A stretch of DNA of 64,000 bases from an uncultured Anaerolineales bacterium (GCA_964539385.1 CAZIJC010000001.1:16860-80859), one strand, 5' to 3'. Counted from the first letter of the stretch, positions 1,216 through 55,342 are shown. A program made the numbers and translations. The notes: generated by a model not told the origin, from the sequence alone.

Positions 1216-2475
1216 TTACTCCTTCTCCGATTTCAGGCGATATAACGTCTCGCCGGCGTGATCGACAAGCAGAATTCCCTCGTCCTGGCGGCCGATCCAT
1301 TCGGCGGCGCGGATTTCGCGCGGGTCCAGGTAGCCGAGGTTGATCCGCGCGCACCGCTCCTTCGGGATGCCGGTGGCAAGCGTGACTTTGATGCGCGGCT
1401 GCTCGACGCCGCCCGAGTACGTGCCCAGGCCCTTGACGTGCGTCGAGTGGGCCATCACACCGGCGGGCACGTCGGCGAACTTCTCCATCTGCTCGCGGAA
1501 GTAGTCGAGGCAGTGGTAGCCGATCTTATCCAGGATGCGCCCGTGCGTGTAGGAGACCTCGGTGATGTGCGGGGCGTAGATGATGAGTTCGCCGCCGTCG
1601 GCGACGACCGGCTCAAGTTTGTACATCACCTTGCCGGCGGTCCAGAGGTCGTCGTACATTTCGGGTGCGATGCCGAGGACGCGCTTCAGCGGCCGGTCCA
1701 CGTACCGGATGTGGACCTGGGCCGAGAGGTCGGCGGCGGCGCTGAAGGCCTCCTTCGCGTCGCCGATGAACAGGCCCTTGAGGCCCTCGCGCGCCACGAC
1801 CATGTCGAAGTTCGTGACGGGCAGGTCCACCAGTTCGACGGCCCGGTCGATGACCCGCCGCACCACGGTGTCCTTGACGCCGTTGATCTTCCAGTTCGTG
1901 ACCAGCGCGCCCAGCCAGTGGAAGAAGTGGATAATCTCGGGGCCCGCAACGCCGGGGAACAGGTACTTGTGTCCGCCGGAGAAGCCGACCACCTCGTGCG
2001 GGAAGGTGGGCCCGACGATGAAGAGGTGATCGTAGTCGAAGAGCAGCGCGTTCACCTCGACCGGCACGTCGCGGGCGCAGCGGCCCCCCGTCAGGCGGTC
2101 CATCTCGGCCGCCGCCAGCGTGCCGATGACTCTGAGGGCCTCGGGATTGTCCCACTCGTGGTTGAAGATGCGGGCGCCGCCGTACGGGTCGGCCCGTTCT
2201 TCGGGCGTCATCTCCATCAGGCGCAGGACCTTCTCGTCGTCCATCGGCATGTGCGTGCCGAGGGCGATGAGGAAGTCGATCTTCGCGACGCGCCCGAGCA
2301 GCAGGTCGCACAGCGTACGGAACATGAGGCCCACCGGCGCCGTCCGCGTCGAATCGGGAATCAGCGCCAGGACCCGCTTCCCGTCGAGCGGGAGGCCGGC
2401 GAGCGCCTGCTTGCAGAACTCGCGGACTTCCGTATCGGAGAGAACGCCTTCGGTGTGGCCGCGGCCGATGATCAC
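1216..2475 (-). CDS. LarA-like nickel-pincer lactate racemase family protein (DUF2088)
   Basis: Tool ORF 1216..2730, with the likely true start at GTG 2473-2475 (VIIGRGH...) because the upstream part overlaps pdxB. Conserved LarA-family blocks GFSGGHKYLFPG, DSTRTAP and ALGTHMP. TAA stop is 6 nt before the pfp ATG, so the genes are coupled. Confidence 0.6.
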   Translation of the reverse strand: MIIGRGHTEGVLSDTEVREFCKQALAGLPLDGKRVLALIPDSTRTAPVGLMFRTLCDLLLGRVAKIDFLIALGTHMPMDDEKVLRLMEMTPEERADPYGGARIFNHEWDNPEALRVIGTLAAAEMDRLTGGRCARDVPVEVNALLFDYDHLFIVGPTFPHEVVGFSGGHKYLFPGVAGPEIIHFFHWLGALVTNWKINGVKDTVVRRVIDRAVELVDLPVTNFDMVVAREGLKGLFIGDAKEAFSAAADLSAQVHIRYVDRPLKRVLGIAPEMYDDLWTAGKVMYKLEPVVADGGELIIYAPHITEVSYTHGRILDKIGYHCLDYFREQMEKFADVPAGVMAHSTHVKGLGTYSGGVEQPRIKVTLATGIPKERCARINLGYLDPREIRAAEWIGRQDEGILLVDHAGETLYRLKSEKE

Positions 2476-2488
2476 GGCAGGTCCTTTT

Positions 2489-3646
2489 CTATTGCCCGCG
2501 CTCTGTGACGACAGGAAACGCCAGGCCCTCCAGCGCCGCCGCAACGTCCGGGTCCGGCGCGGCCAGTTCGACGGTCGTTTGCGGGAACTCACGGCGGACG
2601 GGGTAGCCCCGGCGGAGCGACGTGAAGTAGTCGCCCCGCTCCCCGGCCGCCCGCGCGAGCATCTTGCGCAGGCGAGCGTCGTCGGCCTCGATATCGTACG
2701 CCGCCGTGATGGCGCCGCCAAGGGCTTCATCGACCGTCAGGCCTGCGGGCAGGGCGACGCGCGGATGGGCGGCCGGCGGCATCAGCGGCGCCGGGTCCCA
2801 CTCGCGCTGGAGGCCGAAATGGCGGCACAGCGCCGCCAGCACCATCCGCGTGCCGTTTACCTTGCCGTCGTAAGAGTACCCGGCGACGTGCGGCGTGGCC
2901 AGGTCCACCTGTTTGAGCAGTTCGGCGTCGATGTTCGGCTCGTTCTCCCACACGTCCAGGACGAGCGGGCCGATGGATCCGGAGCCGATGGCGGCCTTCA
3001 GCGCGCCGGTGTCGGCCACGGCGCCGCGCGACGTGTTGATGAGCGTCACGCCGCGCTTCAGGCCGGCGAGCAGCGGAGCGTCGATCATATGGAACGTGGC
3101 GTCGGGTCCGTCGCGCGTAAGCGGCACGTGCAGCGTCACGACGTCGGCGTCGGCCAGCGCGTCGATGGGCACGTAACACGGGTCGCAGGTCCGCCGCGCC
3201 AGCGGGGGATCGTTGCGAAGGACCGTCATGCCGAGCGCTTCGGCCATCCGGGCCAGGCGCCCGCCGACGTTGCCGACGCCGACGATGCCGAGCACCTGCC
3301 CGGTCATCCGGATGCCTTGCCGTGCCGCCACGACGGCCATCGCCGCCATGACGTATTCCGCCACGCTGCGTGCGTTGGATCCCTGGGCGCTGGCAAACCC
3401 GACGCCGCGCGAGGCAAGGTACTCCAGGTCGACGTGGTCGGTGCCGATCGTCGCGGTGGCGACAAAGCGGACACCGCTGCCGTCGAGCAACGGGGCGTCC
3501 ACGCGTGTGACGCTTCGGACGATCAAGGCGTCGGCGTCGGCGATGGTCTGCGGCGTGATGCGGTCGGCTGGCAAGGCGTGGACCCGGCCCAGGGCGCCGA
3601 AGGCGCCGGCGAGCAGCGGGATGTTCGCGTCGGCGACGATCTTCAC
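2489..3646 (-). CDS. pdxB: Erythronate-4-phosphate dehydrogenase (D-2-hydroxyacid dehydrogenase family with PdxB-type C-terminal domain)
   Basis: 385 aa. N-terminus MKIVADANIPLL is typical of PdxB, with an NAD-binding GIVGVGNVGGRL motif. It is 17 bp downstream of gnd. Confidence 0.6.
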   Translation of the reverse strand: MKIVADANIPLLAGAFGALGRVHALPADRITPQTIADADALIVRSVTRVDAPLLDGSGVRFVATATIGTDHVDLEYLASRGVGFASAQGSNARSVAEYVMAAMAVVAARQGIRMTGQVLGIVGVGNVGGRLARMAEALGMTVLRNDPPLARRTCDPCYVPIDALADADVVTLHVPLTRDGPDATFHMIDAPLLAGLKRGVTLINTSRGAVADTGALKAAIGSGSIGPLVLDVWENEPNIDAELLKQVDLATPHVAGYSYDGKVNGTRMVLAALCRHFGLQREWDPAPLMPPAAHPRVALPAGLTVDEALGGAITAAYDIEADDARLRKMLARAAGERGDYFTSLRRGYPVRREFPQTTVELAAPDPDVAAALEGLAFPVVTERGQ

Positions 3647-5441: not shown

Positions 5442-6266
5442 GTGAGTTCGTCGCCTACCATACTTTACTGCAATTGCACGTACGGCGGCGCTGTGCCCCT
5501 CGACGTGCGAGAGGCCGTGTTGGAGGGGCTCGTGGCGTCGGGCGTGCCGTTCGAGCCGGTGGCCGACCTGTGCGAACTGGCCGCACGACGCGACCCGTCG
5601 CTGGAGCGCCTCGCCCGGTGCGACGACCTGCATGTCATCGCGTGCTATCCGCGAGCGGTCAGGTGGCTGTTCGCTTGCGCCGGTGCGCCGCTGGCCGACG
5701 GCGCCGTCATCCACAACATGCGCGAGCAAAGCGCGGACGACATCCTGGCTCATTTAGCCCCCCACACTCATTTAGCCCCCCGTGAAGACACCACTTATTT
5801 AACCCCCCGTGAACACACGGGGGGCAACCCCCAAACAACCCACAAGCCCCCCCAACCGACACCGACTTTCCCCGAGAGGCAGCCCGGCGAGTGGATCGCC
5901 TGGTATCCGGTCATCGACTACGACCGGTGCCGGAACTGCAAACAGTGCCTGGAGTTCTGCCTGTTCGGCGCGTTCGCGCTCGATGATGCCGGCACGGTCC
6001 GCGTCGCGGCGCCCGACCGCTGCAAACTGAACTGCCCGGCGTGCGCGCGGGTGTGCCCGGCGTCGGCCATCATCTTCCCGAAGTTCCGCGAGGGCGGCCC
6101 CATCGCCGGCAACGAGGGCGTGCTGACCGAATCGGCCGAAGAAGGCATAAAGGCCGACATCAAACGCCTCTCGAAAGGTGACGTCATGGACGTGCTCCGC
6201 AAACGCGCCGCTCGCGCCCGCGCCGAGGCCGCCAAAAAGCACTCGACGGAGCAACCCGACCGGTGA
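5442..6266 (+). CDS. 2[4Fe-4S] ferredoxin-domain protein with an N-terminal Cys-containing domain and a His/Pro/Thr-rich linker
   Basis: GTG start. C-terminal [11 protein letters not shown] and [13 protein letters not shown] are classic CxxCxxCxxxC(P) motifs. N-terminal [10 protein letters not shown] weakly resembles MvhD/FlpD-type domains. The linker is encoded by a short nucleotide tandem repeat at about 5750-5800. Its stop overlaps the next gene start (GTGA). Confidence 0.6.
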
Positions 6267-13690: not shown

Positions 13691-14395
13691 ATGGCCGACA
13701 CACCGTCGCTGGTCAAACTCGAACACGTGACCAAGACGTACGAGACGCCCGGCGGCGAGCAGTTGACCGTCCTGGACGATGTCTCGCTGACCGTCGCCGG
13801 CGGTGAATCGCTCGCCGTCGTCGGGCCGTCCGGAAGCGGCAAGAGCACGCTCCTGAACATCATCGGGACACTCGACCGCCCGACGAGCGGCCGCGTGCTG
13901 CTCGACGGCCTGGACCTGTCGCACCTGACCGACGACGACCTGGCCGCCATCCGCAGCGGCCGCATCGGGTTCGTCTTTCAGTTGCATCACCTGCTGCCGC
14001 AGTGCACGGCCCTGGAGAACGTTCTGGTGCCCGCGATGGCCGGGGGCGGCGCGGTGAGCCCGCAGAGGGAGCAGCGCGGGCGGCAGTTGCTCCAGCGCGT
14101 GGGCCTCTCGGACCGTATGGCGTACCGGCCGGGACATCTCTCGGGCGGCGAGCGGCAGCGGGTGGCGGTGGCGCGGGCACTCATCAACGAGCCGACGCTG
14201 CTCCTGGCCGACGAACCCACCGGGTCGCTCGACCGGGCGGCGTCGGAGAACCTGGAGGAGTTGCTCGTGGAACTCAACCGCGAGGAAGGCGTCACGCTCA
14301 TCGTCGTCACGCACGCCGCGGCGCTGGCGGCGCACATGGCGCGGGCGATGGAACTTCGCGACGGCCGCCTCGAACGCCTGGAACAGACGGGATGA
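13691..14395 (+). CDS. ABC transporter ATP-binding protein (LolD/MacB family)
   Basis: Walker A motif GPSGSGKST, signature LSGGERQRVAVARAL, Walker B LLLADEPT. Start ATG 13691 has a GGAGGTGA SD. Confidence 0.85.
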   Translation: MADTPSLVKLEHVTKTYETPGGEQLTVLDDVSLTVAGGESLAVVGPSGSGKSTLLNIIGTLDRPTSGRVLLDGLDLSHLTDDDLAAIRSGRIGFVFQLHHLLPQCTALENVLVPAMAGGGAVSPQREQRGRQLLQRVGLSDRMAYRPGHLSGGERQRVAVARALINEPTLLLADEPTGSLDRAASENLEELLVELNREEGVTLIVVTHAAALAAHMARAMELRDGRLERLEQTG

Positions 14396-14399
14396 GTCC

Positions 14400-14472
14400 C
14401 GCGCGGTGGGCAATCCTGCCCACCGCGCGTGCCGTATCGTAAAGGCGCGGCGGGCAGGATTGCCCGCCGCGC
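14400..14472. repeat. Pair of near-identical 12-13 bp-stem palindromic hairpins in opposite orientation (BIME/REP-like) between the ABC ATPase and permease genes
   Basis: Hairpin 1 is cgcgcggtgggca-atcc-tgcccaccgcgcg (14400-14429). Hairpin 2 is gcgcggcgggca-ggat-tgcccgccgcgc (14445-14472). The loops are reverse complements of each other. Confidence 0.6.
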
Positions 14473-14484
14473 GGGGACTGGGTC

Positions 14485-19425: not shown

Positions 19426-20388
19426 ATGGCACAGTGGAAACCGAGCGGCCTGGGGCCGGAGTTCACGTACGACCTGACGGAACTCAAGAAGGTCGATCCG
19501 GCGCTCATCCACTACGAGCAGGCCGCATCCGTGCCGACCGGCATGATGAAGCCGAAAGGCATCGCCGTCGGCGCAGACGGGCACCTGTTCGTCGCAGGCG
19601 ACGGGGGCGTGCGGGTGTTCGACCCCGCGGGCAAAACCGTCTTGCAGTTCGACGCCTCAAGGTTCGGAATTGCTAAAGGGGTGTTCGACGCCGCCGGCAA
19701 ACCCGTCTTGCAGTTCAAGACGGGCGGCGAGCCGCACTGCATCGCCCTCGGCAAGACCGGCACGGTTTACGTCGGGATGAAAGACCACGTCGAAGTGTAC
19801 GACGTATCGCTCAAACGCACGGCCGCATGGAAGGGCCTGGGCGAGAGAGCATACGTGACGAGTGTGGCCGCCGGCGAGGCCGACGTGTTCGTGGCCGACG
19901 CCGGCAACCGGGTGCTGCTGCGGTACGATACGTCGGGGAAGTTGCTGAACCGAATCGGCGAGGAAGATGCCGCGAAACATGCCCCGGGTCTCGTTGTGCC
20001 AAGCCCGTACTTCGACGTGGCCCTCGGGCCGGAAGGGATGCTGTGGCTCACCAACCCCGGTCGGCGGCGCGTGGAGTGCTACACGTACGACGGTGCGTTT
20101 CGCTTCGCGTGGGGGAAGTTCTCGATGAAGATCGAGGGCTTTTGCGGATGCTGCAACCCGACGCACCTGGCCATCGACACCGACGGCAACTTCATCACCA
20201 GCGAGAAAGGACTGCCGCGCGTCAAGGTGCACGACGACGAGGGTAACTTCAAGAGCGTCGTGGCGGCGCCCGCCGACTTCGCCGACGGCACCGTGGGTCT
20301 GGACCTGGCGGTGGACGCGAAAGGGCGAATCCTGGTGCTCGACCCCAAGCGGCGCGAGGTGCGCATCTTTGTGAAAAAGCGATCGTGA
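19426..20388 (+). CDS. NHL/YVTN-type six-bladed beta-propeller repeat protein
   Basis: Tool ORF 19327..20388. Start at MAQWKPSG (ATG 19426) is 5 nt after the upstream stop. There are six repeats of the [VI]A.(D/G).G..[FY]V.D type. It contains the unusual run GFCGCCNP. Confidence 0.55.
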   Translation: MAQWKPSGLGPEFTYDLTELKKVDPALIHYEQAASVPTGMMKPKGIAVGADGHLFVAGDGGVRVFDPAGKTVLQFDASRFGIAKGVFDAAGKPVLQFKTGGEPHCIALGKTGTVYVGMKDHVEVYDVSLKRTAAWKGLGERAYVTSVAAGEADVFVADAGNRVLLRYDTSGKLLNRIGEEDAAKHAPGLVVPSPYFDVALGPEGMLWLTNPGRRRVECYTYDGAFRFAWGKFSMKIEGFCGCCNPTHLAIDTDGNFITSEKGLPRVKVHDDEGNFKSVVAAPADFADGTVGLDLAVDAKGRILVLDPKRREVRIFVKKRS

Positions 20389-20566
20389 ATTTGAGATTTG
20401 AGACTTGAAATTCTCTGAGATCTGAGATGTGAAATCTCAGGATTTGAGATTTGAGACTTGAAATCTTCTGAGATCTGAGATGTGAAGTCTCAGGATTTGA
20501 GATTTGAAATTTCCTGAGATGTGAGATGTGAAATCTCAGGATTTGAGATTTCAGATAGCAGATTTG
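20389..20566. repeat. AT-rich tandem repeat, about 54 bp x 3.5, each unit containing a perfect hairpin CTGAGAT-gtgaa-ATCTCAG
   Basis: Unit ATTTGAGATTTGAGACTTGAAAT(T)CTCTGAGATCTGAGATGTGAA(A/G)TCTCAGG repeats starting immediately after the NHL gene stop. GC is far below the window average. The long minus-strand tool ORF 20249..21559 merely translates this repeat. Confidence 0.8.
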
Positions 20567-20595: not shown

Positions 20596-20859
20596 ATGAC
20601 CAGACACAGGGACCGGTCCGAGCGGCGGCGCGAGTTCCTGCGCAGCCTCGTGCGGTACCCCGTCCTGGGTGCGCTGGGACTCTTGGGAGGCCGCCTGGTG
20701 AACAGGCAGGCCGGCACGGGCCCCATCCGGGCCGGCCGGAAGTGCAGCAACCGCGGCATCTGCCGGGGATGCCTCCGGCTCTCAACGTGCTGCCTGCCGC
20801 AGGCGTTGATGGCCCGCAACGTCCTCGACCGTGATGGGCCAAGGCGTCCCACTTTTTAG
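20596..20859 (+). CDS. Small Tat-signal-like, Cys-rich protein (87 aa), hypothetical
   Basis: Strong GGAAGGAG SD 7 nt before the ATG. SERRREFLRSL matches the twin-arginine motif, followed by a hydrophobic stretch. Cys pattern C-x5-C-x2-C-x6-CC. No recognisable family. Confidence 0.4.
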   Translation: MTRHRDRSERRREFLRSLVRYPVLGALGLLGGRLVNRQAGTGPIRAGRKCSNRGICRGCLRLSTCCLPQALMARNVLDRDGPRRPTF

Positions 20860-27149: not shown

Positions 27150-27693
27150 AACCGCAGAGAACGCAGAGAACGCAGAGCAACGGCAAAGAATCGGGCAACA
27201 GCAAAACCGCCTGATACAAAGGTGTCGGCGATGAACGAGGAACTCAACCGGATAACAGAGGCCATCATCGGCGCAGCAATGGACGTTCATCGCGAACTCG
27301 GTCCGGGGCTGCTTGAGTCCGCTTACGAAGCCTGCCTCGCCTATGAACTGATTCAACGCGGCTTCAAGGTCGAGCGGCAAAAGACGCTTCCCTTGAAATA
27401 CCGAGACGTCACATTGGACTGCGGCTACCGAATCGACCTGTTGGTCGAAGGGCAAGTGGTGGTAGAAGTCAAAGCGGTCGAGCAGTGGAACCCGGTTCAC
27501 CAGGCCCAGGTTCTCTCGTACTTGAAACTGTCCGGATGCAGAGTGGGGCTTATCATCAATTTTAACGTGAGGATGCTCAAGACGGGCATTAAGCGGTTCG
27601 TCCTTGGACTGAAGGAGTAACCACGCGCAGACCGTGTGCTCATGGCTGCACGCTTCTCAATTACCCTCTGCGTTCTCTGCGTTCTCTGCGGTT
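27150..27693. mobile_element. GxxExxY-gene cassette bounded by perfect 28-bp terminal inverted repeats (AACCGCAGAGAACGCAGAGAACGCAGAG), inserted between two flavoprotein subunit genes
   Basis: Left arm 27150-27177, right arm 27666-27693 (reverse complement). Each arm contains (AGAGAACGC)n. The RBS and ATG of the downstream gene lie immediately outside the right arm. Confidence 0.5.
27231..27620 (+). CDS. GxxExxY family protein (PD-(D/E)xK-like)
   Basis: 130 aa. GPGLLESAY matches the GxxExxY signature, and the C-terminal block YRIDLLVEGQVVVEVKAV is present. Confidence 0.7.
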   Translation: MNEELNRITEAIIGAAMDVHRELGPGLLESAYEACLAYELIQRGFKVERQKTLPLKYRDVTLDCGYRIDLLVEGQVVVEVKAVEQWNPVHQAQVLSYLKLSGCRVGLIINFNVRMLKTGIKRFVLGLKE

Positions 27694-27710: not shown

Positions 27711-29279
27711 ATGCCGAGACTGGTGATCGACAACCAGGATGTTGAAGTCCCTGAAGGCGCCACCATTCTTGATGCTGCACGCCAACTCGGAATCGAGATC
27801 CCGACGCTGTGCTTCCGCCAAGGCTGCGAGCCGTCAACCTCCTGCATGGTGTGCGTCGTCAAGGTGAAGAACCCCGACCGGTTCGTGGCTTCCTGCGGCG
27901 CGCGGGCCGCCGAGGGGATGATTGTTGAGAGCCGGACGGAAGAGGTCCGCGAGGCCCGGCGAACGGCGCTGGAACTGTTGCTCTCCGACCATCCGGCCGA
28001 TTGTATCGCCCCCTGCCAGACCGTGTGCCCGGCGCAGATGAACATCCCGCGCATGATCCGCCGGATCGCGGCCGGCGACGCCGCAGCAGCAGCCGAAACG
28101 GCCCGAACGGCGCTCGTCCTTCCCGCAACGCTCGGCCGCATCTGCCCTGCCCCATGCGAAAAAGGCTGCCGCCGTGCCCGCCACGACGCCGCCGTCTCCA
28201 TCCGCCTCCTGCACCGCCACGCCGCCGAAACCGACCTTGCGTCGGCCACTCCGTGGCTGCCTGCATGCCAACACGACACGGGCAAGCGCGTCGCCATCGT
28301 CGGCGCCGGGCCGGCGGGGCTGGCCGCCGCATGGCGCCTGCTTCAGGAAGGACACGGCGCGACGCTGTTCGACGATCGCGAAGCGCCCGGCGGCATGCTC
28401 CGCTACGGCGTTGAGGAAGACCTCCTGCCACGCAGCGTCCTCGATGCCGAGATCGCCCTCATCGAGCAACTCGGCGCCGAGTTCCGCGGCAGCACCAGGG
28501 TCGGACGCGATGTCGCCATCGTCGAACTGGCTGGCGATTTCGACGCCGTCCTCGTGGCCTGCGGCCGGATGGTGGAAGGCGACGCCGGGCAACTCGGCCT
28601 CGAAGCGGCCGAGAAGGGCCTCAAGACCACCCGGCAGACCTTCGAGACACCGACGGCCGGCGTGTTCGCCGCAGGCGATGCCCTCCAGCCCCGCCGGATG
28701 GCCGTCCGCGCCGTCGCCGACGGCAAAGCCGCCGCCCGTTCCATCATCCAGTACCTGGCCGGCCGGCCCGTCGTCGCACCGGAAAGGCCGTTTACGACGC
28801 ATCTCGGCCACCCGACCGACGAAGAAATGACACCGATGCTTGCCGCCGCAAGCCTCGACGCCCGCGTCGTTCCTTCCGGCGGCGAGGCCGCAGGCTTTAC
28901 ATCCGACGAGGCCTGCCGCGAAGCGCCGCGGTGCCTTCACTGCGACTGCCGCAAGGCCGACACCTGCCTCCTGCGCAAATGGGCGCTTGCGCTCGGCGCC
29001 AAACCGACCCGCCACAGCGGGACGCGGCGGCCGTTCGAACTCCACGTCTCGCACCCCGACGTCGTGTACGAGCCCGGCAAGTGCATCGCGTGCGGCCTAT
29101 GTATCCAGGTGGCGGCGCGAAGGGGCGAGGCACTCGGTCTGACGTTTATCGGCCGCGGCTTCGCTGTGCGGGTCGGCGTTCCCTTCAACGAAACCATTGC
29201 GGAGGCTCTGAAAGTAGCCGCCGCCGAATGTGTCGCAGCCTGTCCGACGGGGGCCCTGGCCTTCAAGAACCAAGCGTAA
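27711..29279 (+). CDS. 2Fe-2S ferredoxin (NuoG/HydA N-terminal-like) fused to GltD-like FAD/NAD(P)H-binding oxidoreductase, with C-terminal 4Fe-4S
   Basis: MPRLVIDNQDVEVPEGATILDAA is a NuoG-like start with Cys residues. VAIVGAGPAGLAAA is a dinucleotide-binding motif. GVFAAGD is present. C-terminal CIACGLC...CPTG. The AAAAGGA SD sits 10 nt upstream. Confidence 0.7.
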   Translation: MPRLVIDNQDVEVPEGATILDAARQLGIEIPTLCFRQGCEPSTSCMVCVVKVKNPDRFVASCGARAAEGMIVESRTEEVREARRTALELLLSDHPADCIAPCQTVCPAQMNIPRMIRRIAAGDAAAAAETARTALVLPATLGRICPAPCEKGCRRARHDAAVSIRLLHRHAAETDLASATPWLPACQHDTGKRVAIVGAGPAGLAAAWRLLQEGHGATLFDDREAPGGMLRYGVEEDLLPRSVLDAEIALIEQLGAEFRGSTRVGRDVAIVELAGDFDAVLVACGRMVEGDAGQLGLEAAEKGLKTTRQTFETPTAGVFAAGDALQPRRMAVRAVADGKAAARSIIQYLAGRPVVAPERPFTTHLGHPTDEEMTPMLAAASLDARVVPSGGEAAGFTSDEACREAPRCLHCDCRKADTCLLRKWALALGAKPTRHSGTRRPFELHVSHPDVVYEPGKCIACGLCIQVAARRGEALGLTFIGRGFAVRVGVPFNETIAEALKVAAAECVAACPTGALAFKNQA

Positions 29280-33536: not shown

Positions 33537-33584
33537 GGTCGCGGCTCGAAAAGGCTCATTGTCGCGGCTCGAAAAGGCTCATTT
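33537..33584. repeat. Perfect 24-bp tandem direct repeat (GTCGCGGCTCGAAAAGGCTCATT x2) between the two HlyD-like genes
   Basis: On the coding (minus) strand each copy starts with ATG and reads as an 8-codon micro-ORF (MSLFEPRQ*, MSLFEPRP*). The first begins 1 nt after the upstream gene's stop. Confidence 0.7.
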
Positions 33585-36323: not shown

Positions 36324-38855
36324 TTACACAACGACCTCGTTCACGCCTGTCGGCAGGTTCCACGTGCGGCCGACCGTATTATAGGTGATGGTGCCGGTGC
36401 CGACCGACTCGGCGCCGAAGCACAACCGCCGGATCGTCCACACGTCCAACGTGCTATTGTTGATGAAGTAGTTGACGCCTACGCCGCGGACGTACATCAA
36501 GCCCAACGTGGCGTGCGTGCCGGCCGGGATCACCGTAGCCAGCGAAATGGCGGAGTTGTCGATCGCGCCGGCATAGATTGAACGGACATTCGCGTCAAGA
36601 GTCAGACCGGAACCGTTGATCGTGCCGAGCACGGCGACCCTTGCAGCCGAGCCATCGATGTCCCAGGCGGCATTGATCAGGTCGCCACCAACGCGGGCCG
36701 TGCCGAGCGTGTGCCGTCCCGCAATCAGATTCCCGGCCAGGGTCAGGTCCAGGCTGTTGACGTCGCCGGTGGCCCTGAAGTGGTTGATCGAGGGGGTCGT
36801 GATAACGTCGGCGACGCCGCCGCTGTCCGTCCAATCCTGGGCGATCAGCCAGCCGACGGGCGTGCCCGACGTGACAACCAGATCGATCACGCTGCCCAGG
36901 CGCATTGAGAGCGTATCCCTGGCCCCGACCTGCGCGCCGACCTGGACCTCGCCGCCGTTCACGTCGTTGAGCCAGAGTAACCTGAGCGTGCCCGGCACGT
37001 CGATCAGGCTGCCCCCGGCCCCATCGTCCACAAAATCAACGGTGGGGGCATGGATGCGGCCGAGCGAGCCGTCCCAGGCGAGCCCGACGTCGTCGTCCAC
37101 GGTAATGCTTTCGACCTCCGTCGTCACGCCCCGGGCCGTCCTCATGGCGAATGCCGACCGCCTCGTCGTTTCGTACAGGGTCACGTCGAAGCCGTTCACG
37201 CCGTTGGCCACCTCGGCCCAGGACCCCCTCATCACGAAGGTCACGAGGTCGCCGTTGGGGTCCTCGATCTGCATTCTGGAGTTGGGGTGGGCCGCGTCGA
37301 AACTGCCGAACTTCCACACGATGGCGGCCTGGTTGGCGGCCGCATCGGTGTTGTTGGTCTCGTCGGCTTCGGCGATGGTGTCGCCCGAATCCACGACGGC
37401 CAGGACGTTGTAGTTGCCGGCCGGGATGTCCGCCGGCACCTGGCTCACGAGCCAGTAGGTCCTGGCCTGTCCGGCCGTGAGGGAGATGCGGCACGTGCGC
37501 TGGCCGAACAGGTAGTCGCCGCCGTCAATGACGCCGTCTACGGACCCGTACAGTTGGATGGTGGCCAATCCGGACGCCGTTCCGGCGCCGCCGTTGGTAA
37601 CCGCGACGGGAATCCGCCACCTGTCGCCGGGAATCTGCTCGGCGCCCGTGACGAAGGCATCGTCAATCGCGATCGTCAGGTCCGGGCCGACGCCCAGGGT
37701 GCCGACGATCGAGGCATTGTTGGCCTCGGAGTACTCGGTGACGCCGCCGGGCTGATCGGCCACGCCGAACAGCGTGTACCCCTGGCCGCCCGCAGGCGCG
37801 TTGAACGAGATCGTGTCGGTCGTGTCGGCGCCGGCGGCGAGCGTGGTCACGTTGTAGGAGCCGACCTGGGTATCGGCGCCCGCGTCGAAGGTGCCGTCGG
37901 TCGAGGTCCAGAGCGACACCGTCCACGGAGTCACGCCTGGGTCGCCGTCGTCCTCGGCGACCGCGAAACCGGCATTGTTGACCTGCACGGGCACGTCAAC
38001 CTGTTGACCAGCAGCGGCCTGATACACGGTTGCCGCCGCCTCGATCGTCAGGTCCGGCCCGACCGACAGGGTCCCGAGCGACGCCGTGTTGTTGGCGTCG
38101 TCATCCTCGGTGACCTCGGTGTCGGAGTCGGCGTAGCCGAACAGCGTGTACTCGCCGGGCACGGGCGCGGCAAAGGAGATCTGGTTCGCCGTGCTGTCCT
38201 GGCCATCAAGGGTCGTCAGGTTGTAGGAGCCGACCTGCGTATCGCCCGCGTCCCAGATGCCGTCGGTCGAGGTCCACAGCGACACCGTCCACTGGCCCAC
38301 CCCCGGGTCCACGTCCGTGACGGCCTGGGCGAAGCCGGTGTTCTCGACCGTGACGTCAACGTCCACGTTGGCGCCCTCCGCCGCCTCGTACGCGCCGGCC
38401 GCGCCCTGGATCTCCAGGTCGATGCCGACCAGCAGCGTCCCGACGATCGACGTGTTGTTGACCTCGGAGTTTTCGGCAACCTCCTCGTCGGAGTCGGCAA
38501 AGCCGAACAGCGTGTACGTGCCGGCCGCAGGGGCGTTGAAGGTGACCGTGTCGGTGGTGTCGCCCGCGGCAGCAAGGGTCACCACCTCGTAGTTGCCGAC
38601 GTTGGTGTCTTCCCCGGCGTCGAAGACCGCGTCGGCCGAGGTCCAGAGCGACACCGTCCAGAATCCGTCAACGGCTTCCGCGGCGGCATCGCCGATATTG
38701 TTCACCTGAATGTCAACATCGACACCCACGGCACCGCTGAGCGCCTCGTACGTGTCTGCCGCCGCCGTGATCGTCAGGTCTGCCGCCAATAGCAGGCGCG
38801 ACTCCAACGCCTCAAAACCGGGCTTTATGCCGCTTTTGTCGCTGTTTCTGTACAT
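36324..38855 (-). CDS. Secreted repetitive protein with four CARDB-like repeats of about 100 aa and a C-terminal beta-rich domain
   Basis: 843 aa. N-terminus MYRNSDKSGIKPGFEALESRLLLAADL. Internal repeats of the pattern WTVSLWTSTDG..DAGDTQVGSYN.TTL...FNAP..G.YTLFG.AD. No Cys-rich motifs. Confidence 0.6.
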   Translation of the reverse strand: MYRNSDKSGIKPGFEALESRLLLAADLTITAAADTYEALSGAVGVDVDIQVNNIGDAAAEAVDGFWTVSLWTSADAVFDAGEDTNVGNYEVVTLAAAGDTTDTVTFNAPAAGTYTLFGFADSDEEVAENSEVNNTSIVGTLLVGIDLEIQGAAGAYEAAEGANVDVDVTVENTGFAQAVTDVDPGVGQWTVSLWTSTDGIWDAGDTQVGSYNLTTLDGQDSTANQISFAAPVPGEYTLFGYADSDTEVTEDDDANNTASLGTLSVGPDLTIEAAATVYQAAAGQQVDVPVQVNNAGFAVAEDDGDPGVTPWTVSLWTSTDGTFDAGADTQVGSYNVTTLAAGADTTDTISFNAPAGGQGYTLFGVADQPGGVTEYSEANNASIVGTLGVGPDLTIAIDDAFVTGAEQIPGDRWRIPVAVTNGGAGTASGLATIQLYGSVDGVIDGGDYLFGQRTCRISLTAGQARTYWLVSQVPADIPAGNYNVLAVVDSGDTIAEADETNNTDAAANQAAIVWKFGSFDAAHPNSRMQIEDPNGDLVTFVMRGSWAEVANGVNGFDVTLYETTRRSAFAMRTARGVTTEVESITVDDDVGLAWDGSLGRIHAPTVDFVDDGAGGSLIDVPGTLRLLWLNDVNGGEVQVGAQVGARDTLSMRLGSVIDLVVTSGTPVGWLIAQDWTDSGGVADVITTPSINHFRATGDVNSLDLTLAGNLIAGRHTLGTARVGGDLINAAWDIDGSAARVAVLGTINGSGLTLDANVRSIYAGAIDNSAISLATVIPAGTHATLGLMYVRGVGVNYFINNSTLDVWTIRRLCFGAESVGTGTITYNTVGRTWNLPTGVNEVVV

Positions 38856-50154: not shown

Positions 50155-50201
50155 GCCGATAGGGAAGCGAGAGAACCTTGGCACCAACAAGGAGCAGCGC
50201 C

Positions 50202-51179
50202 GTGACTGGAACAGGTAAAGCCCGGGCGGGGTTCAGCCTGATGGAAATCCTCATGGCCGTCGGAATCCTCGGCGTCGGGATGACCATGGTGGCCTCGGTG
50301 TTCCCCGTGGCGGTGGACCAGAGCCGCCGCAGTCGCGACCTGACCATGGCGGCCCTGAGCGCGCGCAGCGTGGCGGCGGCCTTGCGCGCTCGCCGCCAGG
50401 AAGTGGTCAATGCGCTGCGAGATGCGAATACGGAGAGTGCGTGGGGAACCTTTGAGGATGGCGCTGATGCGAAGACACCCAGGACGGCGCGGTTAGACTC
50501 AGACCAAACGCCGACAGGCTCGCAGGCAGGGCTACTACCGCCACTTCCGCGGGAACTGCGGTCTTACAACCCCAGGGGTTTCCTTTACGACGACAGTGCC
50601 GATGGCGGTGGAACAAAGAGCGCCCGCCAGTACAGCGCCAACCTGGAAGGGATAGACGGCCTGTGGAGCGCCGGCAGTTATGTCCCGGTCGTTTTCGCCA
50701 CACCCATCAGCAACGACCCGAACGATAACGAGACCAACAAGGCGGGCCACGGCCCCTGGCGGATCACCATCATGATTTACAAATCGCGAGGGCAACAGCC
50801 CGACTACCTCAATCAGAATCCGTCGTCCAGTTGGGTCTGGAACCAGAGAAAGGCGAGCGCCAAGAACCCCGGAGGCGCCGGCAGTTACGTCATGGACTGG
50901 CGGTTTTCGGGCGGCTCCCAACAGATGAACAACCGCGGCGAGGCGTACAAGGTGCAGCGGCATGTTCCGCTGACAACGCGGCAGGACGCTGTCGTTCCCG
51001 CCGTCGCATTCAAGAAGGCCCCGGGAGCAAGACCCGGCTTCCCCTTTTTTAATGCATTCGTGGCCGGCGGCGACCAGAGCAAAGGCACGGACTGCTACAG
51101 CCTGACCAACAGCATTCCCTCCGAGTGGGTCAGCCTGCCCGGGGCCATCGCCGCCTATCACACCATATTGGGAGACTGA
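50202..51179 (+). CDS. Pseudopilin / prepilin-type N-terminal cleavage-methylation domain protein
   Basis: GTG start with an AAGGAG SD. N-terminal KARAGFSLMEILMAVGILGVGMTMVASVF is the class III signal (GFxLxE plus a hydrophobic helix). Confidence 0.65.
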   Translation: MTGTGKARAGFSLMEILMAVGILGVGMTMVASVFPVAVDQSRRSRDLTMAALSARSVAAALRARRQEVVNALRDANTESAWGTFEDGADAKTPRTARLDSDQTPTGSQAGLLPPLPRELRSYNPRGFLYDDSADGGGTKSARQYSANLEGIDGLWSAGSYVPVVFATPISNDPNDNETNKAGHGPWRITIMIYKSRGQQPDYLNQNPSSSWVWNQRKASAKNPGGAGSYVMDWRFSGGSQQMNNRGEAYKVQRHVPLTTRQDAVVPAVAFKKAPGARPGFPFFNAFVAGGDQSKGTDCYSLTNSIPSEWVSLPGAIAAYHTILGD

Positions 51180-51181
51180 CC

Positions 51182-52180
51182 GTGAAGCGAGCGCGACCAG
51201 TCAGGCGAGCAGGCCGCCGCACGGCCTTCACACTCGTCGAACTCGTGACCGCAGCGTCTCTGATGACGGTCATCATGCTCGGCGTTGTCCAGGTGTTCGG
51301 CATCGTCATGCAAACGGCCTCCGACGCCGAGGGCATTCACTTCGCCCAGCAGCAACTGCGGGCGCTGCTCAACCGGCTTCACAACGACCTGCGCGGCATG
51401 ACCCGCGAGGGGTATCTGCAGATCAGGCGCGGCAGCACCCAGCCGACGGGCGCCTCCTACACCTTCAACCCGTCTCCGGGCAACCCGATGCCCGCAAGCG
51501 CGTACGCTTGCGATACGCTGGCCTTCGTCACGATCGGCCAATGCGCCAGCGCTTTTCACGGAAACGCCGACGCCAACACCGCCGAGGTCGTCTATACCAA
51601 CAACGTGAAGACCCCTGAGAACCCCCTCCATGTCGACGGCAGGCCGGTAGACGCGCGGCGCGGCATCCTCGCCCGCGGCGAGTGGATCATAGCAGGCAAC
51701 AGCAGTCTCGCCGGTAATGCCACCGATGGGGACGATATCTCGGCGGCGACGTTTCTCTACGACATGTTCAGAAACCAGCAGAACTTCGGCAGCGACGACC
51801 GGATCTCGATGTCCGGCGGGCACGTCGTCGTCCACCCGTGGATCGCCACAGAGAACCTCCCCCCCGATCAATGGCGCACCTTGAAGCGCGTCATGGCCTC
51901 CTGCGTCAGCGAGTTCCACGTCGAGGTCTTCGATCCGAATGCAGACACCACCGGAACGCTCACCGGGTATTTCAACACCCCCGAGAACCAGTACAGGTAC
52001 ACGTGGTCATGGAGACCGAACGCCAACGATACCATCACCACCTGGCCCCGCGCCATTCGCGTCACGGTGGCCGTCCACGATCCGGCCGACACCGACCTGC
52101 CCCAAACAGACCGCACCGGCGCGGTCAAACGTTTCCGCGGCTTTGCCTTGCAGGAGGTCTTCTGGCTGACCGACCCGTAG
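51182..52180 (+). CDS. Pseudopilin / prepilin-type N-terminal cleavage-methylation domain protein
   Basis: GTG start 2 nt after the upstream TGA. N-terminal RRTAFTLVELVTAASLMTVIMLGV. Confidence 0.65.
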   Translation: MKRARPVRRAGRRTAFTLVELVTAASLMTVIMLGVVQVFGIVMQTASDAEGIHFAQQQLRALLNRLHNDLRGMTREGYLQIRRGSTQPTGASYTFNPSPGNPMPASAYACDTLAFVTIGQCASAFHGNADANTAEVVYTNNVKTPENPLHVDGRPVDARRGILARGEWIIAGNSSLAGNATDGDDISAATFLYDMFRNQQNFGSDDRISMSGGHVVVHPWIATENLPPDQWRTLKRVMASCVSEFHVEVFDPNADTTGTLTGYFNTPENQYRYTWSWRPNANDTITTWPRAIRVTVAVHDPADTDLPQTDRTGAVKRFRGFALQEVFWLTDP

Positions 52181-52193
52181 GGCGGGACGGCAA

Positions 52194-52362
52194 GCAAATG
52201 CCTAATGACTAATGACTAATGAATGACCAGACCACAATGGCGAATGACGGCGAAAAGCATCCAACGCCCCGCGTCGCCCCAGGCCATTCGTCATTCGCCA
52301 TTGCCTTTTGATTAGTCATTAGACATTAGTCATTGGGTATCGGGCATTAGGCATTCATGCAG
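52194..52362. repeat. Large AT-rich imperfect palindrome (about 165 bp, arms about 50-60 bp built from TAATGAC heptamers; inner perfect 15-bp inverted repeat CAATGGCGAATGACG), MITE-like
   Basis: Left arm aaatgcctaatgactaatgactaatgaatgacc...caatggcgaatgacg. Right arm cgtcattcgccattg...gattagtcattagacattagtcattgg...gcattaggcatt. It sits between the second pseudopilin gene and the GspK-like gene. Confidence 0.7.
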
Positions 52363-52384
52363 CATGCGCCGGCAAGGAGAACCC

Positions 52385-55342
52385 ATGAGGTCACCTGGTT
52401 CGGTCCTGATCGTCGTGCTTGGCCTGCTCGCCATCCTGGCGGTCGTGGGCCTCACGTTCGTGACGATGAGCAGCATCGACCGCCGCAGCGCCGCCAACTT
52501 CGCCCTCCAGAGCCAGTTCATGCTGGCTGCCGACGGCACCGTCGACTACGTCTGCCACCACCTCATCCAGGACCTCTGGTACTATGACCCCAAGACCGAA
52601 CTCTACCACGACCGCCTTCTGACCAACCAGAACGGCGGGGCCGGCGAGGAAGTGCCACTGGCCCGAAACGAGCCTTTCGATTGCCCGAGGCTCGAGTACG
52701 ACCCCTGGCTGTCGACCACGCCGAACGGCGAGTCGATTCCCGACACAGGCCAGTTCTCCTACGGCAACCAGGGCGGCGCCCACTACGGCCTGACCGCTTG
52801 GGGCCTCGGTACGCCCCAGAATCAGCGCCCCAACAACCTCGGCTGGCCGACCAACCGCCAGGTCCGGCCGTACACCCAAGGCAACGGACACGGCGTCTGG
52901 ATTCCCCATCTGTCGTTCCCGTTCGACGTCGGCCTCATCCGCGTCAGCGTCACCGTCCTGGACCACGGGGCCATGACCAACCTGAATGCCCACGGCAGGA
53001 ACAGCAACAGCGTCCAGGAGTGCGACAGGTACGGGTACCTCGTCAGCGACGTGGACCCGTCGCATTTTGCCTTCAACGTCGAGGCTCTGCTGAACGGCTC
53101 CGGCTACCCGCCCGGCCTGTGGAGCGGGCAAGACAAGCCGTATAACGATCATCTGTACGAGGCCATCGCCGAGAACCCCGGCCGCTACGGCGATAAGCCG
53201 TTCACCCTGGACGAGGAGTTTGAACTGAGGCGCCTTATCGGCACGCATTTCCAGAGCCGCCTGGAGAGATTCGGCGGTGGCAACCTGGATTCCGCACCCG
53301 ACACGGCCAGCGACACGAAAGCCCGGAAGCGCCTCAGCCTGACAACCGTCAGTTGGACCAGCGAGGTGCGACCCGACTACGAGGACCCAACCGGCCAGAT
53401 ACGCGACGTCGTCTCTCCGCTGCCCAGAGAAACGGCGGACGCCGCGCTGCAGACCACAGACTGGTCCCCGCGCAAGATCGACCTGAACCTCGACGAGCCC
53501 GCCGAGATCCGAAAGGCGCTGAGGTACGGCTACGTTTTTGATTTCGATCCGAGCGCTACCGACGACCCCAAGACAAAATTGGTCAATCAACTGGTCGCCA
53601 ACATCGACGCGTTCCGCGACGGCAGCGACGACAAGGACCCCATCACGAGTTGCCCCGGCGCGGATAGCGCAGTCGGGGCGGCCCCACAGCCCGTCTTCAG
53701 CAAGATCGAGGTGCATAGAGAGCCGGAAATCGATGCGAGCGGCGACGCAACGTCCATGAAGTGGACGATCAAAGTCCAGATCATCAGCCCCTGGCCCGGC
53801 AACGTCTATGGCGACATGGGAGGGCTTAGAGTCGAGAACGTTAGCCTGAAGCCCGTTGAGAGACAGGGGAGTACCGAGAACATAGATTTTGACAAGATAT
53901 TCCCCGAGGAAGACACGATGCCCCCGGACCCCACAAGCAAGCCGTGGGTCTATACGGCCGAGTTGACGACCGATAAGGACCCACTGACGGGTAAGTTCGA
54001 ACTCTATACCGCCCACCTGGACAAGATACAACTTGTGGCCGCCGGCGCGGTCCTCGACGAGATCGACGCCTCCGTGCTGAACGACCTTTGCACGGAGGGC
54101 GACATGGGCATGTCGAAGACCGAATCGAAGTGGCGCATGATCCACCGCGAGCAAGAGAAGCGCCCCCCCGAAGCAGGAGGAGCACCGGACCCCAAGGACA
54201 GCATTTGGGTGGTTTACATCGGCGATTGGAAAGACCAGGCAGGGGACATCACCCAGTTCGCTTTCGCCAACAAGCCGCCCGGTGCGATCCCCATCTGGTT
54301 TCTACGCTCCGTCGGCAGCCGACTCCGACCGAACCTGCACGAAAAGGGCCTGCCCCCGTACCCGATGCAGAACGTTGTGCGGCAGGGCGGTACCGGTGCC
54401 AACCATCCGTTCCGGGCCTTCGCCCGCGTCGGCGACCTCAACCAGGTCCTCTGCCCCAGGCTGGAAGACATCCAGGCGGCGCAGGGAGACAACGGCGAAG
54501 AGAGACACTTCTTCTGGCCATGGGTACCGAGGGTCGCCAGGGCCGCCACAAGGATTGCGGAGCAAGGCTCGGACCTTATCCGCGAAGAAAAAAGACTGAA
54601 ATTCGACTGGAACGACCCCACGCTCCCCATGCCCGGCAACTGCAGCCGCATGAACGCCGCAAACGTCCTCTGCGTAGGCGGGCCGTGGCTCGATGAACTC
54701 GACAACGACGGCGACGGCACGATCGATGATGTCAAACCCGACCCGGCGCCTCCCGGGTGGAGCCAGGCTCCCCCCGCCGACAGAGGCATGAGCCCCGATC
54801 AAGCCGTGGGCGACGAGGGTGGCGATGGCCGCTTCGGCGGACCCGAACTCAGGGTCGCCGGAAAGATCAACCTCAACACCGCCACCGACGACACCCTCAG
54901 GGCACTCGCCAAGGGCGTGGATCTGCCCGACGCAGGCATGTCAGAGACGCAATTCGTCAATGCCGTGAGGACCAGACGCGCTGACACCGACCGCGAGCCC
55001 ATGGGCAGCCCGGTTGAGGTATTCAAAAACCACCTCGACGCAGAAAACGGAGTCACCCAGGCTGACGCCACGAGTAAACTCCAGCAACGCGACCTCGTCT
55101 TCACGCGGATATCGAATATCGCCACCCTTCGCAGCGACACGTTCTCCATCTACGGCACGATCGAGTACGGCCTCATCCAGGGCGACAACCCGCCGAACAA
55201 CACGTCGTTCCAGGCGATGCGGCGGCGGCGGTTCTGGGCCCTGGTGGACCGCAGCCCGTGCCTCGCATACTACCCCGGCCTTCGCGGCCGCGACCCGAAG
55301 TTCATCCGCCCGCGCATCCTGAATTTCCAGTGGCTCGACTGA
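52385..55342 (+). CDS. Large GspK-like minor pseudopilin-type protein (986 aa)
   Basis: Tool ORF 52364..55342. Start MRSPGSVLIVVLGLLAILAVVGLTFV has an AAGGAG SD and is a GspK/PilX-like N-terminus. A long extracellular domain follows. Confidence 0.5.
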   Translation: MRSPGSVLIVVLGLLAILAVVGLTFVTMSSIDRRSAANFALQSQFMLAADGTVDYVCHHLIQDLWYYDPKTELYHDRLLTNQNGGAGEEVPLARNEPFDCPRLEYDPWLSTTPNGESIPDTGQFSYGNQGGAHYGLTAWGLGTPQNQRPNNLGWPTNRQVRPYTQGNGHGVWIPHLSFPFDVGLIRVSVTVLDHGAMTNLNAHGRNSNSVQECDRYGYLVSDVDPSHFAFNVEALLNGSGYPPGLWSGQDKPYNDHLYEAIAENPGRYGDKPFTLDEEFELRRLIGTHFQSRLERFGGGNLDSAPDTASDTKARKRLSLTTVSWTSEVRPDYEDPTGQIRDVVSPLPRETADAALQTTDWSPRKIDLNLDEPAEIRKALRYGYVFDFDPSATDDPKTKLVNQLVANIDAFRDGSDDKDPITSCPGADSAVGAAPQPVFSKIEVHREPEIDASGDATSMKWTIKVQIISPWPGNVYGDMGGLRVENVSLKPVERQGSTENIDFDKIFPEEDTMPPDPTSKPWVYTAELTTDKDPLTGKFELYTAHLDKIQLVAAGAVLDEIDASVLNDLCTEGDMGMSKTESKWRMIHREQEKRPPEAGGAPDPKDSIWVVYIGDWKDQAGDITQFAFANKPPGAIPIWFLRSVGSRLRPNLHEKGLPPYPMQNVVRQGGTGANHPFRAFARVGDLNQVLCPRLEDIQAAQGDNGEERHFFWPWVPRVARAATRIAEQGSDLIREEKRLKFDWNDPTLPMPGNCSRMNAANVLCVGGPWLDELDNDGDGTIDDVKPDPAPPGWSQAPPADRGMSPDQAVGDEGGDGRFGGPELRVAGKINLNTATDDTLRALAKGVDLPDAGMSETQFVNAVRTRRADTDREPMGSPVEVFKNHLDAENGVTQADATSKLQQRDLVFTRISNIATLRSDTFSIYGTIEYGLIQGDNPPNNTSFQAMRRRRFWALVDRSPCLAYYPGLRGRDPKFIRPRILNFQWLD

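Follow-up and report, generated by a model that had tools for sequence, protein, structure and literature searches.

In the window analyzed here (the whole 64-kb stretch of DNA), a 159-bp quasi-palindrome occupies the spacer between a pseudopilin-like gene and a gene specifying a PilX_N-domain protein of 985 amino acids (Table 1). A second gene with a Pfam N_methyl match neighbors the pseudopilin-like gene, and a VWA protein gene comes next after the PilX_N gene. Homologues of the PilX_N protein are named from Phycisphaerae/Planctomycetota MAGs, some of them as GspK, and the host is assigned to the Phycisphaerae. The prepilin-type N-terminus encoded upstream and the PilX_N domain encoded downstream thus bear out the original prediction on this point, which had placed the palindrome between a pseudopilin gene and a GspK-like gene. 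The upstream reading frame ends with a TAG stop codon, and the Shine-Dalgarno sequence of the PilX_N gene, AAGGAG, is kept in all orthologs, including those in which the spacer is empty. A scan of positions 51900-52700 found no promoter-like site in the spacer and no terminator-like site with a U-tract on the + strand; an intrinsic terminator was rejected, as this region holds no + strand GC-rich stem followed by a U-tract. Rfam models run at their gathering thresholds over the whole window returned no match, rRNA included.

Table 1. Features of the spacer, of its operon and of other repeat elements in the 64-kb window
Feature	Position	Strand	Description
Gene with Pfam N_methyl match	50178-51179		Neighbor of the pseudopilin-like gene
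Pseudopilin-like gene	51182-52180	+	Prepilin-type N-terminus RRTAFTLVELV; from translation and gene calls on the identical contig L121
Stop codon of pseudopilin-like gene	52178-52180		TAG
Quasi-palindrome	52197-52355		159 bp
Left outer arm	52197-52222	+	AATGCCT AATGACT AATGACT AATGA; tandem heptamers, 31% GC
Left inner arm	52223-52249	+	Less regular; includes the perfect 15-nt repeat CAATGGCGAATGACG at 52235-52249
Core/loop	52250-52288		39 nt, 67% GC (host-like)
Right 15-nt inner repeat	52289-52303	+	CGTCATTCGCCATTG, exact reverse complement of CAATGGCGAATGACG
Stretch shared with the L135/L138 cassette	52299-52334	-	36 nt; reverse complement is AATGACTAATGTCTAATGACTAATCAAAAGGCAATG, identical to the 5' arm of the cassette; contains CAAAAGGCAATG
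Right outer arm	52304-52355	+	CCTTTTGAT, then AGTCATT / AGACATT / GGGTATC / GGGCATT / AGGCATT units
Right array	52309-52355		AGTCATT-type units
Shine-Dalgarno of PilX_N gene	52373-52378	+	AAGGAG; outside the long hairpin
PilX_N-domain (GspK-like) gene	52385-55342	+	985 aa; domain match, some homologues named GspK
GxxExxY cassette	27151-27690	+	(CGCAGAGAA)x3 and inverted (CTCTGCGTT)x3, 9-nt units
GxxExxY cassette gene	27231-27620		129 aa; GxxExxY / PDDEXK_3, E 5e-47 and 1e-44
27-nt repeat	5765-5818		x2, 88% identity
REP-like twin palindromes	14391-14475		GC-rich; GCGCGGCGGG...CCCGCCGCGC
ATTTGAG heptamer element	20389-20556		AT-rich (21-33% GC); 3.3 copies of a 53-nt unit
23-nt direct repeat	33538-33583		Perfect, x2; GTCGCGGCTCGAAAAGGCTCATT
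Tandem repeat, period 366 nt	37756-38660		2.4 copies, 70% identity; inside the - strand ORF 36324-38855

The element had been predicted as an AT-rich palindrome of 165 bp, built from heptamers, with long imperfect arms and a perfect inner 15-bp inverted repeat around a 45-bp GC-rich core. Heptamers, imperfect arms and the inner repeat are present as described; the length is corrected to 159 bp, the stretch between the 15-bp repeats measures 39 nt, and the arms are AT-rich (31-38% GC in the heptamer parts versus 67% for the window), the GC content of the core being merely that of the genome average (67%). Tandem Repeats Finder (TRF) reports a period of 7 on both sides, with 3.7 copies on the left and 6.4 on the right, and the longest arm pair identified by a repeat finder spans 52 nt with 81% complementarity, besides several pairs of outer arms. 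The 13-mer TAATGACTAATGA, with up to 2 mismatches allowed, occurs six times in the 64-kb window, always within the palindrome, where 0.06 occurrences would be expected.

Neither of two marks of a transposed element that the original prediction had proposed to look for turned up. Outside the palindrome, the 64-kb window holds no further copy of the heptamer arm or of the 15-mer, and about 20 kb of added contig brings in none, so that a near-identical multicopy family is absent from the approximately 85 kb of source genome covered. The AATGACT-type element is present once in the window, where two elements with other repeat units lie elsewhere. Target-site duplications are likewise absent: the palindrome lacks flanking direct repeats both in the window, which reads GGCAAGCAA before and CATGCAGCA after it, and in the element-bearing orthologous loci L126, L127 and L131 (CGGAAA and CATGCAGC in L126 and L131).

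The prediction of a large stem-loop, for which an RNA fold had been proposed as a check, was upheld. The RNA of positions 52185-52370 folds with -77 kcal/mol, compared with -48.5 +/- 4.1 for shuffled sequences (z = -7.0), and the palindrome folded as DNA also stands out (z = -6.4). All element-bearing orthologs fold into long hairpins, with minimum free energies of -76 to -86 kcal/mol and z scores of -4 to -10, versus z of about +1 and no long hairpin in the empty spacers. In every filled spacer the upstream stop codon and the downstream Shine-Dalgarno sequence are left unpaired. RNAalifold, applied to the four elements, yielded 47 pairs with a single double (compensatory) change, from G-C to A-U; covariation among these four sequences therefore lends weak support to an RNA structure.

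Comparison with loci encoding PilX_N protein orthologs (79, 77, 65, 61, 54 and 45% identity) uncovered filled, flipped, decayed and empty versions of the spacer. The element is found in four lineages, namely the window, L126, L127 and L131. In L126 and L131 it is oriented as in the window and has additional heptamer copies and a core that has diverged; the left array counts about 5.5 copies in these two loci, versus about 3.7 in L127 and the window. In L127, the inner arms and the core are the reverse complement of those of the window: once they are turned back, 80 of 91 inner columns are identical to the window, compared with only 72 of 91 for L126. Since the core is locus-specific, the flip occurred in place and not through a second insertion. 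A degenerate, GC-enriched element persists in L132/L133, and L129/L130 and L134 have none, with spacers of 60 nt in L129 and 58 nt in L134. The empty site of L129 reads CCGTAGTCATTCACGC, a single heptamer-like unit that overlaps the stop codon, with TCATTC directly after the stop. In a neighbor-joining protein tree, L129 is nested among the element-bearing lineages and L134 is the outgroup. The state of L129 is thus more simply explained as a deletion, and one gain followed by loss in L129 would be the simplest history suggested by the tree.

Between orthologs the element is 72-90% identical, versus 94-99% for the adjoining coding ends. The pseudopilin and PilX_N genes themselves (window approximately 50985-53885 compared with L126, L127 and L131) are mosaics of segments with 95-99% and segments with 45-65% nucleotide identity, the former notably at the N-terminal ends, which suggests recombination or diversifying selection on exposed parts. 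Flanking identity is therefore a poor clock, and the high similarity of the elements of L126 and L131 cannot be taken as evidence of transfer between the two, the flanking genes being mosaics. In the source population the element is identical in five assemblies, thus giving no sign of rapid phase-variable flipping.

Clues to the provenance of the arms came from a metagenome scan with the exact 24-mer CATTGCCTTTTNATTAGTCATTAG, which is conserved in the arm. In the scanned collection, to which the source metagenome evidently does not belong, four stretches matched, representing three other distinct loci, all in other organisms and none orthologous; by our estimate, which assumes a collection of about 10^12 bases, some 0.03 matches would be expected by chance. 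At one of these loci (L135/L138), the arm AATGACTAATGTCTAATGACTAATCAAAAGGCAATG and its inverted partner bracket a 136-aa ORF for a TIGR02436 four-helix-bundle protein (E 7e-19), the homologues of which carry PF05635, the 23S rRNA intervening-sequence (IVS) protein family. The host of this cassette is a Planctomycetota bacterium, in which it separates the genes for V-ATPase A and B. The reverse complement of the shared stretch in the window (Table 1) is identical to the L135 arm over 36 of 36 positions and over 43 of 45 in a longer stretch, and both L135 arms match the palindrome about equally well. The similarity includes CAAAAGGCAATG, a non-repeat motif common to the palindrome arm and the L135 arms that lies about 10 nt upstream of the small-gene ATG in the cassettes. 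The variant signature AATGACTAATGTCTAATGACT was seen only in GC-rich planctomycete-type loci and is absent from about 100 cyanobacterial loci with the same heptamer; the variant unit AGACATT is likewise restricted to planctomycete-type loci. L137 contributes a gene-less palindrome with the CAAAAGGCAATG motif. Within 10 kb, this 69% GC, probably planctomycete sequence holds three heptamer palindromes (among them those at 625-728 and 2280-2447), with GTCCAAG, GGTTCAA and AGTCATT as units. No similarity was detected between the core of the palindrome in the window and the interiors of the gene-carrying cassettes.

On contigs encoding close homologues of the L135 protein, gene-carrying inserts of this build are met in several operons. 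L145/L147 have the order V-ATPase A-[4HB]-B-[4HB]-D (4HB, four-helix-bundle gene), with inserts at 2459-3018 and 4315-4785 of L145, the second of which is bounded by (AGAATGC)n / (GCATTCT)n. A conjugation operon (TrbL-PrgI-TraC; L139, 1440-2960) harbors a PDDEXK_3 cassette with (ATGCGAA)n / (TTCGCAT)n arms and a four-helix-bundle cassette with CTAATTA-type arms. CTAATTA and AATGACT units accompany a further four-helix-bundle cassette upstream of a sugar transferase gene, and gene calls alone reveal a four-helix-bundle gene inserted between those for a Rieske protein and cytochrome b. The window has a cassette of its own, wedged between + strand genes that end at 27136 and start at 27711, which shares the architecture of the palindrome but bears a GxxExxY gene. 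In all six distinct cassettes with readable DNA (that of L135, the second of L145, both the PDDEXK_3 and the four-helix-bundle cassette of the AT-rich L139, that of the likewise AT-rich L148, and the GxxExxY cassette of the window), the small gene is co-directional with the operon genes between which it lies and is flanked by inverted tandem arrays of 7-9-nt units. In several of them its ATG falls inside an AATGACT unit (M-T-N...). No transposase was seen adjoining any cassette examined. The four-helix-bundle family is very large, with 7982 matches at E <= 1e-15 among 8000 candidates scored, many of them on short contigs (1-2 kb).

Heptamer arrays as such are more widespread. Among the matches listed in a scan for three successive AATGNCT units in one genome per species, most came from filamentous cyanobacteria, and others from Planctomycetota, Armatimonadota, Bacteroidota and further groups; again among the matches listed, Microcoleus, Nostoc and Tychonema have the unit in abundance, frequently arranged in inverted pairs with a short gap. 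Several non-cyanobacterial matches (e.g., L011 and L041) are similarly built palindromes in operon spacers, that of L041, a Pirellulaceae MAG, probably lying between two succinyl-CoA synthetase genes. A script identified 78 cases in the heptamer loci in which two tandem arrays face each other in inverted orientation, many with gaps of 0-200 nt. An obligatory link between heptamer arrays and four-helix-bundle or GxxExxY genes was dismissed, as tblastn with both proteins found none of these genes in about 1 Mb of mostly cyanobacterial heptamer loci; the arrays are therefore a broader phenomenon and can exist without cassettes. In cyanobacteria and one Bacteroidia MAG, inverted arrays of the same heptamer with long gaps also flank complete ordinary genes, i.e., truA, rplI, rplV, psbV, trmD and an ABC permease gene (L005, L010, L022, L032, L046, L085, L100, L114 and L115); in the transcript, pairing of such arrays could enclose a whole cistron.

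Among known systems, the closest kind is the 23S rRNA IVS with an S23p ORF, as in Coxiella burnetii, Leptospira, Brucella and relatives of Xanthomonas. The IVS of C. burnetii, described as selfish, is a stem-loop of 428 nt that contains an S23p (four-helix-bundle) ORF and has terminal inverted repeats forming a 28-bp stem; tandem heptameric repeats (GACAGAT) in strain-variable number precede the ORF, the first of them being the site of RNase III cleavage (PMC4990558). The IVSs of Salmonella and Leptospira are likewise cut by RNase III, and the origin of IVSs is treated there as unsettled (PMC4990558). The palindrome resembles these elements in being a stem-loop insertion in a transcribed spacer, with a long stem, variable-copy heptamers in the stem ends and arms homologous to those that flank a TIGR02436 / PF05635 gene. 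It differs from them in its location, which is an mRNA intercistronic spacer and not helix 25 or 45 of 23S rRNA, in having a 39-nt core without an ORF and in that both arms are long heptamer arrays; excision by RNase III extends to it only by analogy. PF05635 genes located between cmr3 and cmr2 have been interpreted as CRISPR-associated (PMC3936711).

Other repeat families offer partial parallels. The STRR heptamer repeats of filamentous cyanobacteria were reportedly described by Mazel et al. in 1990, and Elhai et al. are said to have found, in 2008, small mobile repeats inside cyanobacterial heptamer arrays. A catalogue of heptamer direct repeats covers Beggiatoaceae, cyanobacteria and Bacteroidetes and puts forward no mechanism (PMC4679880). 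The palindrome shares intergenic tandem 7-nt units with STRR and the Beggiatoaceae TAACTGA repeats; unlike it, these occur in AT-richer genomes, chiefly as direct arrays and unaccompanied by a cassette gene, and the planctomycete elements are set apart from the cyanobacterial loci by AATGACTAATGTCTAATGACT and CAAAAGGCAATG. REP, BIME and REPIN elements are also imperfect palindromes in transcribed operon spacers that fold in the mRNA. REPs are 20-40 nt long, GC-rich, high-copy and tied to RAYT transposases (PMC3733652, PMC3116915). Unlike REP/BIME elements with their 20-40-nt size, GTAG/CGTC tag and high copy number, the palindrome is 159 bp long and AT-rich, has heptamer arms and is present once in the window. 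With MITEs it has in common the small size, non-coding nature, AT-richness, inverted ends, intergenic position, patchy occurrence and apparent shortening from a larger element, and it departs from them in having tandem repeats as ends and no target-site duplication or transposase parent, nor was a multicopy family detected in the approximately 85 kb covered. ERIC elements are imperfect palindromes in transcribed intergenic spacers of operons as well, and in these as in the REP-type elements the fold in the mRNA can affect processing or stability. Hairpin-associated small inversions are known as stem-loop 'flip-flop' in chloroplasts; the L127 segment between the inverted arms is similarly reversed with its flanks unmoved, an analogy of mechanism only and not of family. 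Searches of the openly accessible literature found no paper on operon-spacer cassettes with tandem-repeat arms or on gene-less derivatives of them, an absence that carries little weight.

On balance, we lean towards reading the palindrome as a non-coding miniature member of the family of IVS-type palindromic cassettes, residing in an mRNA spacer. Full-length members of this family carry a gene for a four-helix-bundle protein (S23p / 23S rRNA intervening-sequence protein) or for a GxxExxY PD-(D/E)XK protein, enclosed on both sides by tandem arrays of 7-9-nt units in inverted orientation, and occupy transcribed spacers, classically in 23S rRNA helices and here between the cistrons of operons. 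The palindrome would have kept both arms, i.e., the AATGACT heptamers and CAAAAGGCAATG, with the 39-nt core replacing the gene; its descent from a gene-carrying cassette is suggested by the arms alone, through the retained CAAAAGGCAATG motif. It may have entered the pseudopilin-PilX_N spacer in an ancestor of a Phycisphaerae clade, after which heptamer copy number drifted, presumably by slippage, the inner part was flipped in place in one lineage, probably through recombination or template switching between the inverted arms, and the element decayed in another lineage and was probably deleted, between short repeats, in that of L129.

In the operon transcript, the arms are predicted to pair over about 75 bp as an imperfect hairpin, with stop codon and Shine-Dalgarno sequence remaining free. 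By analogy with rRNA IVSs, RNase III would most likely cut this stem, which would make the insertion tolerable and would separate the messages of the two genes, whose relative expression would change mildly at most. We infer that the palindrome is near-neutral for the host and is probably of minor consequence for the pseudopilin operon. Its affiliation with IVS-type cassettes draws on terminal inverted repeats that pair as a stem, on heptamers in variable copy number and on arms homologous to those of gene-carrying members; the 39-nt core holds no PF05635/TIGR02436 or PF13366/TIGR04256 ORF in the loop. Because the ORF is missing, though loci with homologous arms (L135 and L145) carry the gene, we file the palindrome as an ORF-less derivative and not as a full member. 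Several findings speak against an IVS-type element. The core, besides lacking an ORF, matches nothing in the cassettes, the window contains a single AATGACT-type copy, and arrays of the same unit abound in cyanobacteria with no four-helix-bundle or GxxExxY gene nearby. The exact 24-mer occurs at only three other distinct loci, so that either spread is rare or arms diverge fast, and no mobility enzyme was identified. That four lineages have kept the element at one site could reflect a host function instead.

Such a function is at the center of the main rival explanation, in which the palindrome is a regulatory or stabilizing stem-loop of the host, favored by selection because, lying between the cistrons of the mRNA, it adjusts the amounts of minor pseudopilins relative to the PilX_N/VWA proteins by providing a processing site, a 3' stabilizer of the upstream pseudopilin message or a brake on read-through. 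Occupation of the same spacer in four lineages would suit this proposal, as would a hairpin kept despite copy-number change and inversion, a stop codon and Shine-Dalgarno sequence that are always free and the one compensatory exchange of a G-C for an A-U pair. Empty and flipped alleles, the foreign nature of the arms and the near absence of covariation nevertheless weaken it, and we judge it unlikely. Two relatives dispense with the element in the same operon, their spacers measuring 58-60 nt, and where present it is less conserved than the adjoining coding ends. Its loop tolerates reverse-complementing, its arms are common to cassettes in unrelated operons, and it comes with neither a terminator-like U-tract nor a promoter. 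The double change affects 1 of 47 pairs, and homogenization of the arms through template switching would also yield 'compensatory' changes. An operator array had been put forward in the original prediction and finds no backing here, also when taken more broadly as heptamers serving as iterated sites for a DNA- or RNA-binding regulator. In its favor are the iterated 7-nt motif and its symmetric arrangement, and binding of a posttranscriptional regulator has been proposed for the TAACTGA heptamers of Beggiatoaceae (PMC4679880). Against it stand the position inside an operon with no promoter-like site, the free variation of copy number and orientation, the use of unrelated units across this class of elements (e.g., ATTTGAG, CGCAGAGAA, AGAATGC and ATGCGAA) and the occurrence of identical heptamers in varied spacers of many phyla, which together make a binding array highly improbable.

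Two further explanations concern how the palindrome arose. It might have grown on the spot as a non-mobile structure, slippage expanding an AGTCATT unit beside the stop codon and fold-back or template switching copying the array in inverted orientation, in which case its similarity to other loci would be convergent. In favor of this, the empty site of L129 has one heptamer-like unit on the stop codon, orthologs differ in copy number, and several phyla commonly have heptamer arrays and short-gap inverted pairs, built from a variety of units. Convergence is, however, hard to reconcile with the 36 identical bases shared by the window and L135, which include the non-repeat CAAAAGGCAATG and a 24-mer estimated to recur by chance only about 0.03 times, or with the restriction of the shared variant AGACATT to planctomycete-type loci; the nested position of L129 within element-bearing lineages also makes its empty site more simply a deletion, and we hold local growth to be improbable. 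A classical MITE, i.e., a deletion derivative of an insertion sequence that is moved in trans by a transposase recognizing its terminal inverted repeats, is more improbable still. This label, under which the element had first been predicted, retains some merit in the size of about 160 bp, the terminal inverted symmetry, the AT-rich and foreign composition, the intergenic position, the presence or absence among relatives and the cassette-homologous arms. Against it, no flanking direct repeat is found in the window, L126, L127 or L131, the termini are tandem arrays and not unique terminal inverted repeats, and the gene that relatives hold between such arms is for a four-helix-bundle protein and not for a parental transposase; within the window and its contig, one copy was counted.

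Together with the GxxExxY cassette of the window, the palindrome points to a general, poorly described class of insulated intercistronic inserts. Tentatively, and with reservations, we extend this to a widespread and essentially undescribed class of selfish cassettes in Planctomycetota and several other phyla, possibly candidate phyla included, in which four-helix-bundle (Avd/S23p-like) or GxxExxY nuclease genes between inverted 7-9-nt arrays are wedged into housekeeping operons (V-ATPase, Rieske/cytochrome b, conjugation, pseudopilins). Such cassettes might be harmless because their arms, once paired in the mRNA, would be excised or cleaved, as a protein-operon counterpart of rRNA IVSs, and might leave behind gene-less hairpins that can flip. 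If so, many 'accessory' PF05635 or PDDEXK_3 genes in CRISPR and other operons would be passengers, and tandem-repeat arms would be a functional hallmark of the cassette class; small cassette genes should accordingly not be taken for functional partners of host operons. Should the IVS-type interpretation hold, it would join three subjects so far considered apart, i.e., rRNA IVSs with their S23p ORFs, the very large four-helix-bundle and GxxExxY gene families scattered over operons, and intergenic short-tandem-repeat palindromes, and would offer a testable model of a selfish insert that is insulated at the RNA level, with filled, flipped and empty alleles at one locus. What the palindrome would add to the rRNA IVS kind is a variant that is gene-less and located in a protein operon.

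The window contains further repeats of diverse make-up (Table 1). The ATTTGAG heptamer element fills the spacer from a gene end at 20388 to an ATG at 20597, has the hairpin CTGAGATgtgaAATCTCAG in each unit and folds as RNA with z = -4.7. Units related to the GC-rich REP-like twin palindromes are found in the PilX_N-VWA spacer of relatives (L129, 12893-13173; L132, 7293-7603; L133, 3038-3222). L132 and L133 encode an identical PilX_N protein, yet their PilX_N-VWA spacers differ by 126 nt; the REP-like units therefore turn over quickly. Besides two short repeats of 23 and 27 nt, a tandem repeat with a period of 366 nt lies inside an ORF, where it is probably a repeated protein domain.
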